A DNA stretch of 32,000 bases from Candidatus Saccharimonadota bacterium (GCA_027925225.1 AP027131.1:90001-122000); one strand, 5' to 3'. Positions 1,899-9,733 are shown, numbered from the stretch's first letter. The notes: generated by a model from the sequence alone, not told the origin. A program made the numbers and translations.

Positions 1899-3119
1899 AT
1901 GGAACCAATTTACGTACATTCAGAATATGGTAAATTAAAAAAAGTTTTACTTCATAGGCCAGGAGCAGAAACTGAAAACTTAACTCCTTCAACATACGTT
2001 GAATTGCTTTTTGATGATGCTTACTTTTTACCTCAAGCTCAAAAAGAGCATGATGCTTTTGCAAAAATTTTAAGAGACAATGGTGTTGAAGTCATTTATT
2101 TAGAAGATTTAGTTGCCACTGTGCTAAGCATCAGTAAAGAAATAAAGGATGATTTTATTGAAAGATTTATTATTGAAGCTGGGGTAGATAGAGAAAGCAG
2201 TTTATTTCATAGAGTTGTAAATTATTTTGATACTTTTAAAAATAATAAGGAGCTTGTTGTCAAAATGATGGCAGGTGTAAGATTTTCAGAATTACCAAAT
2301 TCAGAAAAAAAAACATTAAGAGAGTTAAGCCAAAATGAATTATTTGCACTTAAACCAATGCCAAACTTAATTTTTACAAGAGATCCATTTTCAACAATAA
2401 ATAAAGGCGTTTCACTTCATACAATGTTTTTTGAGACAAGAAGAAGAGAAACATTGTTTGGGGAATATGTTTTTAAACACCATCCAGACTATAAAACAGT
2501 AGAGCTTTATTATGATAGATATCAAAATACATCAATAGAAGGAGGAGATGTAATGATTCTGAGTGATAAAGAAATTGCTGTTGGAATGTCACAAAGAACA
2601 AATTCTTCTTCAGTTGAAAAATTAGCACATAATATTTTTAATAAAAAAGGTACTACAATTGAAAGAATTTATGCAATTGACATTCCTAAAGGTAGGTCAT
2701 GGATGCATCTTGATACAGTTTTTACACAAATTGATAAAAATAAATTTGCTATTTTTAGTAATTATCAATTTACAATTTTTAAAATTACAAAAAATGAAGA
2801 TGGAACTCATAGAATAAAAAAATACAAAAAAAGTATTGATGAAATTATGGGAGAAGTTTTTAAACAAAAAGATGTGAAATTAATTCATTGTGGTAATGGG
2901 GATCCGTTAATTTCAGAAAGAGAACAATGAAATGATGGGTCAAATGTTCTTGCCATTTCTCCAAATGTAGTTGTTGCATATGAGCGAAATTATGTTACAA
3001 ATAAAGCATTAAAAGAAGCAGGAGTTAAAGTATTTGAAATTCCTTCTGGAGAATTATCAAGAGGTAGAGGCGGACCTAGATGTATGTCAATGCCTTTAAT
3101 AAGAGAAGATGTTAAATAA
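1899..3119 (+). CDS. arcA: Arginine deiminase, 406 aa
   Basis: Track ORF 1899..2930 continues through one TGA (..[68 protein letters not shown]). It contains the conserved ADI catalytic-Cys motif ([10 protein letters not shown]) and the FTRDP and HLDT motifs. Confidence 0.95.
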
Positions 3120-3204
3120 TTTTAAATATTGAGATAAAATTATTTAAAATGAGTTTTTATTTTAATATTTTTTACATAATTTGTAAAAAAACAAAGGAGA
3201 ATTT

Positions 3205-4209
3205 ATGCCAATAAATTTAAGAGGTAAAAGTTTACTCTCAGTCGGAGAATGAACAACAGATGAAGTTAATTATGTTTTACAACTTTCAAAACAATTAAAA
3301 GATCAAAAAAGAACAGGATCTAATCAAAGAATTCTTTTAGGCACAGCAGGAACAAAATCTATTGTTGTTATTATGCAAAAGGATTCTACAAGAACAAGAT
3401 CAGCATTTGAAACAGCAGCATTTGATTTAGGAATGAATGTTTCTTACATTGGTCCTACCGGTTCACAAATTGGTAAAAAAGAGTCTATTGCTGATACCGC
3501 AAGAGTTTTAAGCAGATTTTATGATGGTATTGCTTTTAGGGGATCTGCGCATTCAGATGTTGTTGAATTATCTGAAAATTCATTGGTTCCAGTTTGAAAT
3601 GGTCTTACTGATAAATGACACCCCACACAAATGTTTGCAGATTATTTAACAATTTATGAACATTTTGGTAGAACAAATGTAAAATTTGCTTTTTTTGGTG
3701 ATGCTAAAAATAATATGGGAAATTCATTAATGGTTATGGCAGCTCATATGGGAGCTGAATTTTGAGCAGTCGCACCTAAAAAATATTGACCTTCAAGAGA
3801 AATTGTTGATATTGCCAAAAAAATTGCAAAAGTTACAGGAGCTTCAATAAATATGACTGAAGATCCAAAAGTTGGCGCTAATAATGCTGATGTTGTTTAT
3901 ACGGATGTATGAGTATCAATGGGAGAGCCAGATGAAGTTTGAGAAGAAAGATTAAGAGACCTTAAACCTTATCAAATTAATTCACAAATTATGGGACAGA
4001 CAAGTAAAAATTCTATTTTTTTACATTGTTTACCAGCATTTCACAATACTGATACAAAAGTTGGTGCTGAAATTGCTGCAAAATATAAAGTTAAAGAAAT
4101 GGAAGTTACAGACGAAGTCTTTGAGTCAACAAAATCAAAAGTTTTTGATGAAGCAGAAAATAGAGCCCACACAATTAAAGCAATTATGCTTGCTACATTA
4201 GGATATTAA
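3205..4209 (+). CDS. arcB: Ornithine carbamoyltransferase (catabolic), 334 aa
   Basis: ATG at 3205 preceded by AAAGGAGA. The same frame joins track ORFs 3373..3597 and 3991..4209 through several TGA (Trp) codons. Motifs STRTR, HPTQ and HCLP are present. Confidence 0.95.
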
Positions 4210-4270
4210 TTTTAATCAAATAAAATAAATTTAAATTTTTATCTAAACACATTTTAAAAAAGTCAAAATT

Positions 4271-6139
4271 ATGAATATGAATAATGAAATCGAGAGCATA
4301 GTAGAAGAAGTTGTTGATAAAAAAGATGAAATCACAATAGATTTAAAAGAAAACACATCTATTGTTTTTTCTAAAGAAAAAAAATCAAAAGAAAAAAAAT
4401 CAAATGAAGTTAGTTCTGTTGTTTCTAAAGAAGCAACAGAAAAAACAAAAGTAAAAGTAAGCGAAAAAGAAAAAGAAAAAAATAAAAAGAAAAAATGATA
4501 TCAAAAATTTAAAATACCCAAAGCTCTTACAATTATTGTAGGAATTCTTTTAATTTGTATATTTCTTACATGAATTATTCCTCATGAAGGTTATTTTAAA
4601 GTTGAAGATAGTTCGGGAAATATTATTCACCAACAGTATTCTGAACTTTACCCCGACGGTATACAGCCAGGAGATATAAATTGGTTTGATAGTACACCTT
4701 TCGGCTTAAATTTTGTCTCTGATTATTGGTATATGCCAGGCGGAGGTATGGATCCTCGCTATGGTTTTTTTGACACAATTGAAGTAATTATTGCAGGTTT
4801 TTTAGGAGCAGCAGGAGTTATATTTTTTGTATTTGCAATTGGTGCTTTTATTGAAGTTATGATGTCTTCAGGAACACTTGAAAAAGGTGTTGGAGCATTA
4901 GAAAATAAATTAAAAGGAAAAGAAATTATTCTTATTCCTATTTTATTTACTTTATTTGCACTTGGAGGAACTACTTATGGAATGCAAGAGGAAACTATAG
5001 GATTTTTCCCAATAATTATTCCTTTTCTTCTAATTGCAGGATTTGATTCAATGACTGGGTTTCTTGTAATTGTTATGGGGTCAACAACAGGAATTGCAGC
5101 CTCAACTGTTAATCCGTTTTCAGTAACTGTTTATGCTGATGCGATGGCTAATTCCGGTGCAGATTATGTAACCACTGCTTCTTCATCAATGGGAATGGGA
5201 GGTAGATTTGCAATATTTGCTTTATTTACAATAATAGGGGGCTCAATTATAACTTTTTATGCAGCAAGAGTTAAAAAAGACAAATCACACTCACTTCTTG
5301 CCGATCAATATGAAGATGATCTAAAATGAGCTCGTGATCAATATGGTGGTATTGATGAACATGCTGAGTATAAAAAAATGTCCAAAAGACAAGTGATAGC
5401 CATTTGGATTTTTGGAGGAACATTTCTTTTAATGGTTATAGGTATGATGCCATGGGGTGATTGATTTGGATTTGATTCTAGTACTGCCCCTGATGGATTT
5501 GCAATTTTTTCATCTCTATTTTTTGGTTCGGCAATGATTGGAACATGATATTACATTCAATTAATATTTCTATTTTTAATAATGACCATTATTTTAGGAA
5601 TAATTTTTAAAATGAATGGTAAAGATATCAGCAAAACAATGATTAGAGGTGCTAAATTCATGTTAAGTGTTGCTATCATTATTGGAGTCGCACGTGCTAT
5701 TTCTTATGTTTTAATTTATTCTGGTCTTGCAGATACAATAGTTGTATCTTTACTTTCAAGTATTGGTGATGTTAGTCCTATTGCATTTTCAATTATAGTC
5801 TTCCCAATATTCTTAATTTTAGGAGCATTTATTACATCAACTTCAGGTCTTGCATCTGCTGTTGGTGGAATTATGGGAACATTTATTTCTGGAATAGCAG
5901 TAAATTCATCAGACCCACAAGCAACAGCAGATGCATTAATTATAGGAACAATGCTTGCTTATACATTAGCAACCGGAATTATGAATATGTGATCTCCGAC
6001 AAATGGATTACTTCTTGCACAAGCAGAGGCGGGTCACTTAGATTATCCGAAAGTTTTTAAACCATTATTCTCTTATGCAATTTTAATTACTATTCTCTCA
6101 TTTTTAGTGATTCCAGGTGTTACCGCACTTTCAATGTAG
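4271..6139 (+). CDS. arcD: YfcC/ArcD-family (TC 2.A.118-type) membrane transporter, putative arginine/ornithine antiporter, 622 aa, with a 75-aa Lys/Glu-rich N-terminal extension
   Basis: One frame joins track ORFs 4271.., 4733.. and 5582.. through TGA codons and ends at TAG 6137-6139. The canonical YfcC-like N-terminus (WYQKFKIPKALTIIVGILLICIFLTWIIPHEG) starts only after the charged extension. Its position between arcB and arcC supports the call. Confidence 0.85.
4373..4402 (+). repeat. Perfect 15-bp tandem duplication (AAAGAAAAAAAATCA x2) inside the arcD N-terminal extension
   Basis: 4373-4387 and 4388-4402 are identical and encode KEKKS twice. Each copy carries an A8 tract. Confidence 0.9.
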
Positions 6140-6176
6140 AGTCAAAAATTTAATTTAAAAGGAAAGGTAAAATTTT

Positions 6177-7115
6177 ATGAATAAAAAAAGAAGAATTGTT
6201 GTAGCTTTAGGAGGTAATGCTCTTGGAGATACACCAAATGAACAAAAAGAAGCAGTAAAAATTACTGCAAAATCAATTGTTGATTTAGTTGAAAAAGGAA
6301 ATGAAGTTATTGTTGGTCATGGCAATGGCCCGCAAGTTGGAATGATATCTTCTGCTTTTGAAGAAGCGACAAAAGTAAATAAAAAAATTCCATCAATGCC
6401 TTTAGCTTTATCTGGTGCAATGAGTCAAGGTTATATTGGTTTACATCTTGAACAAGCTATTAAAAATGAATTTTTAAAAAGAAATCTTAAAAAAGATGTA
6501 ATTACTATTGTTACGCAATCAATAATTGATGAAAATGATCCTTCTTTAAAAAATCCAACAAAACCAATAGGTTCATTTTTTAAAGAAGATGAAGCAAAAA
6601 AACTTGCAAAAGAAAATGATTGATTTGTTGGAGAAGATGCCGGAAGAGGTTGAAGGAGAATGGTTCCTTCACCAAAACCAATAGACATTGTTGAAAAAAA
6701 TGTTATTAAATCACTTGTAGAACAAGGAGTAATTGTAATTGCTGGAGGAGGCGGAGGAATTCCAACTCTTTTAAAAAATAAAACTCTTGTTGAAATCGAT
6801 GCAGTAATTGATAAAGATTTTACTTCTGAAAAAATGGCAGAACTTTTAGAAGCTGATTTATTTATGATTGTTACCGCAGTAGACGGAATTTGAAAAGATT
6901 ATGGAAAAAATACTGCAAAATTTATTTCAGAAATTTCTCCAAAAGAATTAGATGATTTGGTTGCAGCAAAAGAATTTCCTTCAGGATCAATGGAACCAAA
7001 AGTTATCGCAGTTTCAAAATTTGTTAAATCAAAAAAAGGAAGAAAAGCAATAATAACTTCTCTTGAAAAAGCATCAGATGCTTTAATAGGAAAAGCAGGA
7101 ACAAAAATTATTTAA
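6177..7115 (+). CDS. arcC: Carbamate kinase, 312 aa
   Basis: Track ORFs 6177..6623 and 6660..6893 share one frame and are joined through TGA codons (..ENDWFVGEDAGRGWRRMVPSPKP..). N-terminal VVALGGNAL and GHGNGPQVG motifs are present. Confidence 0.95.
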
Positions 7116-7177
7116 TAATTAATTAAATTAAAAATTTTAATGAGAAAAAATGTATCTTTTTATATTAATTTTATTTA

Positions 7178-7930
7178 ATGAAATATATATGTGGAGTAGA
7201 TGAATCTGGAATTACAAATAATCATAATAACCTTTTAAAAAAAATTCTTAATAATTATGAATTAAAAGAAAATCAAAAATTTTCTCTTATTACAATGATT
7301 TTAATAAAGGAAGATGAGTATTCTTATTTTAAAAAAGAATTAAAAATACTAAAAATAAATTTATTGAAAAATAAGAAAATAAAATTACATACTTCAGATT
7401 TTTTAAATAAAAGAAATTTATTTTTAAATTATGAAATAAGTGAATTAAAAGAGTTTTTATTTTCTTTTTTAAACATAATAGAAAATTTAAATTTTAAAAT
7501 TTATCAGGTTTTTATCGATAAGGAGTCACATCTTAAAAAATATAAGGAAAAATCTATAGATCCATATTTTTTGGCATCAAAATATTTTATTAATAAAATT
7601 TCTAAATTAAAATTACCAATTGATTTAATTTTTGAGAGAAGAAGTTATAATTTAGACATAGAATTATTAAAGAATTTATACACTTGAAATTACTTTAAAA
7701 ATGATGATTTGAATATTTATTTTTTAAATAAAAGAATTAATGATGATTATGAAATTATTGAATTAGCAGATTTTGTATCATATTTTTTGTTTATAAGTTA
7801 TTTAAAATATGATGATAAGTATTTTGCTAAAGTAAAAGTTTTATCAGAAGAAAACGAAGATTTACTTGTTATGATCAAAAGAATTTTGTTTTTAAAAATA
7901 AGCAATTATTCATTTAAAAAAATAGATTAG
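7178..7930 (+). CDS. DUF3800-like protein, 250 aa
   Basis: Track ORFs 7178..7687 and 7709..7930 share one frame and are joined by a TGA. Motif pattern: N-terminal GVDESG, mid KLHTSDF, C-terminal IELADFVSY. This matches the DESG / H..D / (Q)LAD pattern I associate with DUF3800. The gene is visibly more AT-rich than the flanking arc genes. Confidence 0.6.
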
Positions 7931-8047
7931 TTATTTTTATTAAAAAAAATGATACTTTTTTTTCTATTTTAATATAATGATTATTGATTGCCAAGTCTTT
8001 TTCGTAACAATAAATAATTGGTGTTGTCCATAACATAATATTGTTAT

Positions 8048-8420
8048 GTGAGACTTGGCGGTCTATGGGCAGCACCAATTATTTTTATATAGTTTAAGCA
8101 GAAAAAAATTATTTCTTTTTATGTTGTTTGTTGTATAATAGGGTATGTCAGGTATGGACAAGGCACTTAAAATATTAAACTGAATGCCTTTGAAGAATTT
8201 GTTTTGTCTGAAGCCTGATGTGAGAAGAGAAGGTATTCGTTAAGGTTTATATATTTTACTTTTATGCTAGTTTTATTTGTGTTTGAGTGTGTGTTTAATT
8301 ATATTTATTATTTCTAATAAAAAGGGAGGACGTAAGTTCTCTCTTTTCTTTTTAAATGAGAAAAAAATTAATATCAAATATATAATTTTATTGCTAGAGA
8401 ATCCGACCGCCAAGTCTCAC
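8048..8420. repeat. Pair of 16-bp perfect inverted repeats enclosing 341 bp
   Basis: GTGAGACTTGGCGGTC at 8048-8063 and its exact reverse complement GACCGCCAAGTCTCAC at 8405-8420. The right arm is followed by ATTTTTTG. Confidence 0.9.
8145..8353 (+). ncRNA. Candidate structured sRNA (alternatively a leaderless 32-codon sORF at 8145..8243)
   Basis: TATAAT at 8134-8139. Nested helices 8148-8152/8214-8218, 8156-8160/8205-8209 and 8161-8165/8185-8189 lie in a locally GC-rich patch. A terminator-like hairpin 8320-8347 is followed by CTTTTT. Confidence 0.3.
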
Positions 8421-8458
8421 ATTTTTTGTTTGCGTTAAAGGATTCTTTAGTCTTTTTT
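8394..8458 (+). terminator. Terminator- or attenuator-like hairpin in the cysS leader
   Basis: 11-bp stem 8394-8404/8440-8450 (one G-U) with a 35-nt loop that contains the right inverted-repeat arm. T6 follows at 8453-8458, 43 nt before the cysS ATG. Confidence 0.35.
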
Positions 8459-8500
8459 ATCTCTTTAATGTTAAAATTCTAATAATATTTTTATTTTATT

Positions 8501-9733
8501 ATGGAAATAATTGATACATTTAGTAATAAAAAAATTAAAATAAATCTGTCGCCAAATATATATCTTTGTGGTCCAACAGTTTACGATTATGTTCATATTG
8601 GTAATGTTAGACCTTTAATTATTTTTGATATTTTAAATAGAGTAATGTCTTTAAATGGTAATGTTACATATGTTCATAATTTAACTGATATTGATGATAA
8701 AATAATTGCTCAAGCACAAAAAGAAAACAAAAATGAATTAGATTTATCTTTTTTTTATGCAAAGGATTATTTAAATTTAATTGATAAATTAAATATTAAA
8801 AAACCTACCTATTTACCTAAAGTTTCTGAAAATATGAATGAGATCATTAAAGTAATTGATGAATTAATAAAAAAATCATTTGCATATGAAAAAGAAGACG
8901 GAATTTATTTTTCCATTAAAAAATGAGATAAATATTTTAAAATAAATAATTTTTCTGTAGATAAATTAAAAATTTCAGATTTATCAAGAGAAAAAAATTC
9001 ATTTGATTTTTCATTGTGAAAAATTACAAAAGATAATGGAATAAAATTTAAATCAAAATGAGGTGATGGACGTCCTGGTTGACATACTGAATGTGCAGCT
9101 TTAATAATGAAATATTTTAAAGGTAAAACTATTGATTTACATGGTGGAGGAGTAGATTTAAAGTTTCCTCATCATATTAATGAGTGGGCACAATTTAGTG
9201 CATTAACAGGGAGCGATATAACAAGAGCTTGAATGCATATTGGACATGTAAATTTTGATAATAAAAAAATGTCAAAATCATTGGGAAACACAATATATGT
9301 AAGAAATTTTTTAAAAAAATATTCAAGTAATGTTTTGAAATTTTTATTAATTAGTAGTTTTTATACTAAACCAGTAAATGTTAATGAAAACAGTATAAAA
9401 AATGCACAAATGCAGGTTGATAAAATAAGAAACTTATTATTTAAATTAGTCTATTTATATGATCTAAAGGAAAATAATTTTCTTATTAAAAAAGATGAAG
9501 AATTTCTAAAAATTATTAATAATAATCTTAATATTCCTAATAGTATTTCACTCTTAAATTTATATATAAAAAAAATTAATAAAAACTACGATAAGGAGAT
9601 TATTAAGAAATTTCTTTTCATTTTAAATATTTTTGGAATTTCCTATAATATTGATTTTAAATTACTAAATGAATTAAAGAACAAGAAAATGGAAACAGAT
9701 GATTTAAAAATTAGAGAGGTTATTAAAATTTAG
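8501..9733 (+). CDS. cysS: Cysteine--tRNA ligase, 410 aa
   Basis: Track ORFs 8501..8926 and 9233..9733 share one frame, and the middle part is joined through TGA codons. HIGH motif (VHIGN), WHTECAA zinc-site region, FPHHINE and KMSKS are present. Confidence 0.95.

Follow-up and report, generated by a model that had tools for sequence, protein, structure and literature searches.

Aminoacyl-tRNA synthetase genes in the Firmicute relatives of the Mollicutes are usually under T-box control, and the cysE-cysS unit of Bacillus is one of those regulated in this way. To our knowledge, very few regulators are known in the Mollicutes. In some members of the group, aminoacyl-tRNA synthetase genes still have a T-box in front of them (bioRxiv 10.1101/2025.10.23.681674). 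The genome paper of Candidatus Hepatoplasma vulgare makes no mention of riboswitches, T-boxes or the cysS spacer region (PMC10928387), and nothing on the element described here was found in Rfam or the searchable literature.

Here we analyze an inverted repeat that lies upstream of cysS in a 32-kb stretch of DNA, called the window throughout. Judged by comparison with related genomes, the two arms of this repeat form a long-range RNA helix that has been conserved in a probable cysS leader of Hepatoplasma symbionts, an RNA studded with predicted terminators and not described before. The leader resembles a T-box in that it stands 5' of a synthetase gene in a Firmicutes-derived lineage, appears to oppose a terminator and an antiterminator that exclude one another, and occurs in tandem in some genomes. 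It differs in having no covariance-model match, Stem I, specifier codon or T-box sequence. It also differs in logic, since the putative Hepatoplasma antiterminator would exclude the terminator by topology, with the 5' arm of the terminator held in the antiterminator loop, and not by sharing nucleotides with it. There is a further likeness to the attenuators of trp and pheST and to those of the PyrR and TRAP type, where a second segment (here A') chooses between a first (A) and a third (A'') and thereby decides the fate of a downstream terminator. Unlike these, the Hepatoplasma leader has no conserved leader peptide or known protein-binding motif, and its predicted terminators are two in series (three in the window), the first of them placed within the switch itself.

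Source organism and gene neighbourhood

The window has 26% G+C and reads UGA as tryptophan (genetic code 4), and its CysRS matches the one from the isopod symbiont Candidatus Hepatoplasma vulgare at 100% identity. Its genes run in the order tuf, tRNA-Cys, arcA, arcB, a DcuC-like transporter, arcC, a DUF3800-like ORF, the spacer and cysS, followed by a SpoU-family methyltransferase, a sigma-like protein, secE, nusG, rplKAJL and rpoBC. We compared eight Hepatoplasma lineages, namely the window, L001, L002, L003, L005 (Ca. H. scabrum), L006, L008 and L009, of which the first three form the H. vulgare clade.

Several features of the neighbourhood may be recorded. The arginine deiminase cluster (arcA, arcB, DcuC-like transporter, arcC) lies together with the DUF3800-like ORF between tRNA-Cys and the cysS leader in the vulgare clade (window 1899-7930), and H. 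scabrum has one unknown ORF alone in that place (L005 4650-5470). The DUF3800-like ORF of the window falls below the Pfam DUF3800 threshold (E <= 0.01), and its L002 orthologue is annotated DUF3800. The tRNA-Cys gene is found on the same strand upstream of cysS at 1353-1427 in the window, 2648-2722 in L001, 3023-3097 in L002 and 4575-4649 in L005. Like other first genes of units in the window, cysS has no Shine-Dalgarno sequence.

An 18-bp inverted repeat in the cysS spacer

The intergenic spacer between the DUF3800-like ORF and cysS measures 570 bp (7931-8500), the length reported in the initial annotation. Within it, GTGAGACTTGGCGGTC occupies 8048-8063 and recurs as an exact reverse complement in 8405-8420, with 341 nt separating the arms; a renewed search confirmed these positions and the separation as first given. 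The repeat is real and perfect but longer than the 16 bp originally assigned to it: the AT on the outer flank of each arm is complementary to the other, so the perfect repeat extends to 18 bp (8046-8063 / 8405-8422). The 2-bp AT flanks had been noted as too short to be informative about a transposon; they lengthen the helix and form no target-site duplication. The right arm is followed directly by ATTTTTTG.

Chance had already been thought very unlikely, and a chance origin of the 18-bp repeat is excluded. With up to 3 mismatches allowed, the 16-mer has only its two arm sites in 32 kb, and dinucleotide-preserving shuffles produced a match in 0 of 100 trials. We estimate the probability that an exact 16-mer of such composition recurs inverted within 570 nt, at 26% GC, as ~1e-6. 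The arm 16-mer has 19 matches in viral contigs, all single and unpaired, which is about chance level for a collection of that size. Besides a terminator palindrome at 492-540, the 18-bp repeat is the sole long G+C-containing perfect inverted repeat in the window. That palindrome is a perfect 24-bp one with 1 nt between its arms (ATTTATATAAAAAAATAGTTCTTT / AAAGAACTATTTTTTTATATAAAT); it separates the end of tuf from a convergent ORF and resembles a bidirectional terminator.

The syntenic relatives L001 and L002, with CysRS 85% and 63% identical, both carry a 574-bp spacer in the same place. Both arms are kept in each, contrary to the loss from close relatives that the initial annotation had allowed for. 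In L002 (GTAAGACTTGGCGGTC / GACCGCCAAGTCTTAC) the third arm position has changed from G-C to A-U on both sides, a compensatory change in a syntenic copy of the kind that had been proposed as a mark of an RNA helix. The spacer of the window is 68% identical to that of L002, on a par with the flanking coding DNA (72% for cysS and 68% for DUF3800). The features of the locus are collected in Table 1.

Table 1. Positions of genes, pairing segments, hairpins and promoter-like sites around the cysS spacer, counted from the first letter of the window.
Feature	Coordinates	Strand	Remarks
DUF3800-like ORF	7178-7930		Upstream border of the spacer
P1, promoter-like site (ATGATA-18-TATAAT)	7949-7978	+	Consensus match; -10 ends 8 nt before segment A
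Segment A (GAUUGCCAAGUCUU)	7986-7999	+	Upstream partner of A'
Segment B	8003-8012	+	Pairs with B' (8039-8048), stacks on A:A'
Segment C	8012-8032	+	5' arm of terminator-like hairpin T1
Segment B'	8039-8048	+	Pairs with B, or with local 8033-8039 in the T1 fold
Segment A' = left repeat arm (AUGUGAGACUUGGCGGUC)	8046-8063	+	Contains invariant CUUGGC
Segment C'	8064-8086	+	3' arm of T1, into U-tract
Insertion	8085-8393	+	H. vulgare clade only (window, L001, L002); between T1 and D
TATAAT	8134-8139		Conserved; in the insertion
Hairpin H1	8145-8221	+	Inside the insertion, covarying
79-nt invariant stretch	8246-8324	+	Identical in window, L001 and L002 save a 1-nt indel; U/G-rich
Mini-ORF (MLVLFVFECVFNYIYYF)	8264-8317		17 codons, inside the 79-nt stretch
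T3, canonical intrinsic terminator (stem, GUAA loop, UUUUCUUUUU)	8320-8353	+	Terminator scan: 1 found, 0.1 expected
TATAAT, second	8381-8386		Conserved; just before D
Segment D	8394-8404	+	5' arm of terminator-like hairpin T2
Segment A'' = right repeat arm	8405-8422	+	In the 35-nt loop of T2, then U6
Segment D' and U6 run	8440-8450 and 8453-8458	+	3' part of T2
TGTTAAAAT, extended -10-like	8469-8477	+	Conserved in three vulgare-clade loci; from sequence and alignment
cysS (cysteine--tRNA ligase)	8501-9733	+	Genetic code 4 translation

Two mutually exclusive folds in the 5' module

The left arm, A', is part of an ordered set of segments that pair in two ways. The A:A' helix has 14 bp in the window, G-U pairs included, and is valid on the plus strand only. 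It is significant against shuffles in 7/9 modules and weak in H. scabrum (L005), and the core of segment A, GCCAAG, is kept everywhere except H. scabrum. The D-arm of tRNA-Cys (GUAGCCAAGU) has GCCAAGU in common with segment A, with a 10/10 match in L002, a likeness that may be coincidence or a trace of the origin of the element.

The alternative helix, C:C', has 21 bp in the window. Its loop-proximal pairs form in 13 of 13 positions in each of 10 modules with wholly different sequences, and exchanging arms across lineages brings C:C' pairing down to 43%. (These pairs were counted by script; MAFFT left the variable arms out of register.) The helix contains 18 G-U pairs, which would be A-C mismatches on the minus strand, and it is significant against shuffles in all nine modules tested. 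Strand preference is also seen in the 5' module as a whole, which folds at -35.8 kcal/mol (z = -5.1) on the plus strand versus -24.7 on the minus strand.

The two folds exclude each other, since C is enclosed in the A:A'+B:B' hairpin loop and C' comes immediately after A'. They are also close in energy: forced A:A' and C:C' folds are 0.2-5 kcal/mol apart in six lineages (-35.8 and -35.2 kcal/mol in the window), and the A:A' fold is the minimum free energy structure of the window while the C:C' fold is its ensemble centroid. In the C:C' fold, A' makes a small hairpin with a UGGC loop. Over the 10 modules the invariant letters are those of the A and A' cores only. The loops are variable and share no common Cys codon, and no conserved unpaired nucleotides that could serve as a ligand or tRNA site were found in the genus-wide 5' module.

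The right arm and a second terminator-like hairpin

The right arm, A'', lies within or against a second hairpin, T2, situated 40 nt before the cysS start codon. Its D:D' stem amounts to 11-12 bp on folding and, by eye, shows one compensatory change (C-G to U-A) in L002 and two wobble-compatible changes in L001. A'' is inside the T2 loop in the window, L001, L002, L003 and L009; in L006 and L008 it abuts T2, and its duplex with A' takes in the lowest 2-3 nt of the T2 stem. A canonical plus-strand T2 was called by the terminator scan in L005, L006 and L008. T1 and T2 of the window, as obtained from folding, have long predicted stems followed by U-tracts, and their loops of 31 and 35 nt put them outside the loop limit of that scan.

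Between the arms themselves, the A':A'' helix comprises 18 bp at ~-35 kcal/mol. With internal loops allowed, the duplex is significant in 7/9 modules (z -3.1 to -10.3) and weak in H. scabrum only, and positions beside the invariant core vary between clades and stay paired. This conserved plus-strand pairing, with its compensatory changes, supports the early suggestion of a structured RNA or cysS leader helix. What must be given up is the simple closing stem of one 370-nt fold, the arms being one of three alternative partners.

An insertion between the arms in the vulgare clade

The cores of A' and A'' are 79-115 nt apart in L003, L005, L006, L008 and L009 and 354-370 nt apart in the vulgare clade, which indicates a clade-specific insertion of ~300 nt. 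The initial annotation had pictured an ancestral terminator with an invaded loop, and it was right about the invasion; the ancestral form was more than a simple hairpin. No similarity to the insertion was found elsewhere.

Hairpin H1 of the insertion has the stem AUGUCAGG/CCUGAUGU in the window and AUGCUAAG/CUUAGCAA in L002, three base pairs having changed on both sides (by eye), and its G-U pairs favour the plus strand. T3 shows one compensatory and several wobble-compatible changes among the close genomes. The 79-nt stretch between these two is conserved in another manner. Flanking coding DNA is just 68-72% identical between the window and L002, unlike the stretch itself. Folding gives the stretch no significant structure of its own (z = +0.8), and when its complement was searched for with mismatches allowed, nothing but the stretch came up. 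An invariant 24-mer from it had 0 matches in metagenome and viral contigs, and 0 in species-representative genome contigs, from which the source locus itself was also not returned. With regard to a metabolite riboswitch, the invariant stretch of the insertion is unstructured and is present in three genomes only. It may serve as an sRNA seed, as a protein-binding strand or as a tiny hydrophobic peptide under added antisense constraint. The mini-ORF was considered as a leader peptide and rejected: no Shine-Dalgarno sequence precedes it, the conserved DNA is not confined to the ORF, and control through such a peptide would work in the wrong direction.

Conservation and distribution in the genus

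The A-B-C-B'-A'-C' module is found upstream of cysS in all 8 Hepatoplasma lineages fetched. In L003, L005, L006, L008 and L009, with CysRS 46-53% identical, it is co-oriented with cysS despite differing upstream genes. The genus-wide order is A (..CCGCCAAG..), B, C, B', A' (CUUGGCGG), C' and a U-tract. Downstream of C' come an A''-like segment in or beside a second hairpin with a U-run, then 22-85 nt, then the cysS start codon.

The module is missing in three more distant relatives (Tyloplasma litorale L090, L091 and L092), as judged by a covariance model and by cysS abutting the upstream gene. R1, the covariance model of the 5' module, was run over 161 kb of Hepatoplasmataceae loci and brought up no additional copies; its minus-strand matches are echoes of the same hairpins. 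A degenerate pattern of the 5' module had 0 matches in the metagenome collection, and a CysRS alignment search for related loci returned distant Firmicutes and others only, with no Hepatoplasma.

Additional copies occur within some leaders. In H. scabrum (L005 5495-6000) the whole ~259-bp leader unit is tandemly duplicated, the unit consisting of a promoter-like site, the 5' module, T1, an A''-like segment and a canonical T2. L008 has an additional partial 5' module at 5563-5830, and L006 an apparent degenerate B'A'-like remnant (UUAUGUUUUGAAUUUGGUGGU) upstream of its module.

Promoter-like sites and known RNA families

Sites similar to P1 are present just upstream of the module in L003, L005 and L009, with a TTGAGA -35 in L005 and L009. 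The second plus-strand site, TGTTAAAAT, is missing from the output of the promoter scan, which accepts no site lacking a -35. Extended -10-like counterparts between T2 and the cysS start are found elsewhere (TGCTATAAT, TGTTATATAAT; L009 about 4879-4887, L003 about 5982-5992). A cysS-proximal promoter at this site is possible: given the -10-like sequence between T2 and cysS, the gene may be transcribed separately from the RNA that precedes it.

On the minus strand, segments A and A'' read TTGGCA/TTGGCG, and the scan pairs them with a TAAAAT-like -10 placed 17 nt away, giving promoter-like sites at 8385-8413 and 7966-7994 in the window, 5670-5698 in L006 and 4650-4678 in L009. A weak minus-strand MicC-like Rfam match (8308-8413, E = 0.017) is T3 read in reverse, and an antisense transcript across T3 is conceivable.

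The early view that the element fits no RNA family stands. Besides the weak MicC-like match, Rfam at gathering thresholds and at permissive E-values reported tRNAs only in the window and no family in the spacer region or in orthologous leaders, and ARAGORN found no tmRNA. RNase P RNA, SRP RNA and 6S RNA, considered for size or local resemblance, gave no match or motif. A Cys-codon ORF at 7977-8033 (MIIDCQVFFVTINNWCCP) was rejected as a leader peptide, as its start codon is missing from both L001 and L002 and it runs across the P1 -10.

A model for the cysS leader

Building on covarying, strand-specific helices, a bistable 5' module and its linkage to cysS, we propose that the spacer encodes a terminator/antiterminator leader for cysS with A' as its pivot, a reading to which we assign a probability of about 60%. 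The use of P1 as a promoter, the release of RNA polymerase at T1, T2 and T3 and the direction of control are inferred from the sequences. In this model, a plus-strand leader of ~0.5 kb would start at P1, just upstream of A, and run into cysS. In a first state, A' would pair with A and, together with B:B', form a long 5' hairpin that prevents T1. In a second, topologically exclusive with the first and about equally stable, A' would sit in the loop of the C:C' hairpin, which with its U-tract would act as T1. In a third, A' would pair with A'', T2 would be prevented and RNA polymerase would read into cysS. Without A':A'', under the A:A' or the C:C' fold, transcription would end at T2 or T1. The assignment of A':A'' as the antiterminator follows from geometry: an 18-bp duplex between two loops is longer than one helical turn, so by our reasoning at least one hairpin must open, and a helix incompatible with both hairpins closed is the likely antiterminator. 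In the vulgare clade, the insertion carrying H1, the invariant strand and T3 would have pushed A' and A'' apart, and it is there that their complementarity is longest. Less easily fitted to the model are the weak A:A' and A':A'' helices of H. scabrum, the placing of A'' beside T2 in L006 and L008 and the lack of conserved unpaired nucleotides that would mark a ligand or tRNA site. Moreover, as no obvious antiterminator opposes the strong T3, A' and A'' may seldom be joined on one transcript in this clade.

This last point leads to a real rival, which we consider rather improbable. The spacer could encode one or more independent sRNAs: one of ~100 nt from P1 to T1, one within the insert that stops at T3, and a short one closed off by T2. 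A promoter close to cysS, formed by the conserved TGTTAAAAT, would serve the gene itself. A':A'' would have no part in read-through, being instead an RNA-RNA contact in trans or within one molecule, or the pairing of an sRNA with its target. Every one of these units is bounded by a promoter-like and a terminator-like sequence, cysS is preceded by the extended -10-like sequence downstream of T2, and the strong T3 intervenes between the arms. The insert is laid out like a trans-acting sRNA, a hairpin on the 5' side being followed by the invariant, unstructured stretch and then by a terminator, and the arms are complementary over the greatest length (18 bp) where they are most widely separated. 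However, the element stands throughout immediately 5' of cysS and in the orientation of the gene, though the upstream gene changes, and the loci that have lost it are exactly those in which cysS adjoins its upstream neighbour. The scan finds no -35/-10 promoter between T2 and cysS, and tandem duplication of a whole unit, as in L005, is typical of serial attenuators.

We give little credence to a tRNA-sensing descendant or analogue of the T-box, in which uncharged tRNA-Cys would contact CUUGGC of A' through the UGGC loop and shift the switch. The idea draws on the T-box over cysE-cysS in Bacillus and the persistence of T-boxes in some Mollicutes, on the terminator/antiterminator logic with a UGGN-like loop offered by A', and on the syntenic tRNA-Cys gene upstream. 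Yet Rfam gave no match to the T-box (RF00230) in 7800-8600 even at E <= 10, and none in the leaders of L003, L005 and L006 at E <= 1; the same tool found the T-box of an unrelated Bacilli locus (L063). No Stem I, specifier loop or conserved unpaired Cys codon (UGC/UGU) is present in the 10 modules. Pairing of A' with the tRNA-Cys acceptor end was rejected for a mismatch at the discriminator base, since tRNA-Cys ends in UCCA (U73) in four genomes and the UGGC loop would match GCCA.

Two readings treat the repeat as a DNA element. An invertible switch, in which the 18-bp repeats are recombination sites and the 341-bp promoter-bearing segment flips to control cysS, is known in kind from the mpl promoters of Mycoplasma penetrans. 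The likeness lies in short perfect inverted repeats around a few hundred bp of promoter-like sequence beside a Mollicute gene, and a compensatory change that keeps the arms identical is also expected of recombination sites. We nevertheless regard a switch of this type as decidedly unlikely. The segment has the same orientation in all three vulgare-clade assemblies (window, L001, L002), and no recombinase occurs among the window ORFs or the called neighbour genes. In the other lineages the homologous arms are imperfect, short-range RNA helices with internal loops, 79-115 nt apart, and A:A' pairing through G-U wobbles makes sense in plus-strand RNA only; cysS, moreover, is an essential housekeeping gene.

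The remaining reading, a MITE-like transposon with terminal inverted repeats of a suitable 16-18 bp and a size near 375 bp, or else a chance or recent local duplication-inversion, is rejected: the locus is syntenic and shared by species whose CysRS are 63% identical, sequence outside the arms is conserved as well, the arms are older than the insert and occur without it in five other lineages within a larger conserved module, the AT flanks are helix and not a target-site duplication, the interior holds covarying RNA helices, and no second copy was found in the 32-kb window, in 42 kb of L001 and L002 or in the genome, metagenome and viral scans.

It is tempting to take the terminator/antiterminator leader one step further. 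A genus-specific family of RNA switches may have replaced an ancestral T-box over cysS, and in the vulgare clade it may have split into a trans-acting sRNA-target pair joined by the 18 bp, with the 79-nt strand as a new sensor or seed. We offer this extension tentatively, as possible but doubtful.

Implications

If the model is correct, the leader combines an antiterminator that excludes its terminator topologically with a long-range helix that couples this choice to a second terminator. That helix has survived an insertion of ~300 nt in an RNA with two equally stable folds and two to three predicted terminators, and the locus would offer a natural example of a cis-acting switch that has been stretched, perhaps into a trans-acting pair. 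The alignment offers RNA-family curators a starting point. If cysS is indeed regulated in this way, the leader would represent a new solution to synthetase homeostasis in an uncultured isopod symbiont.
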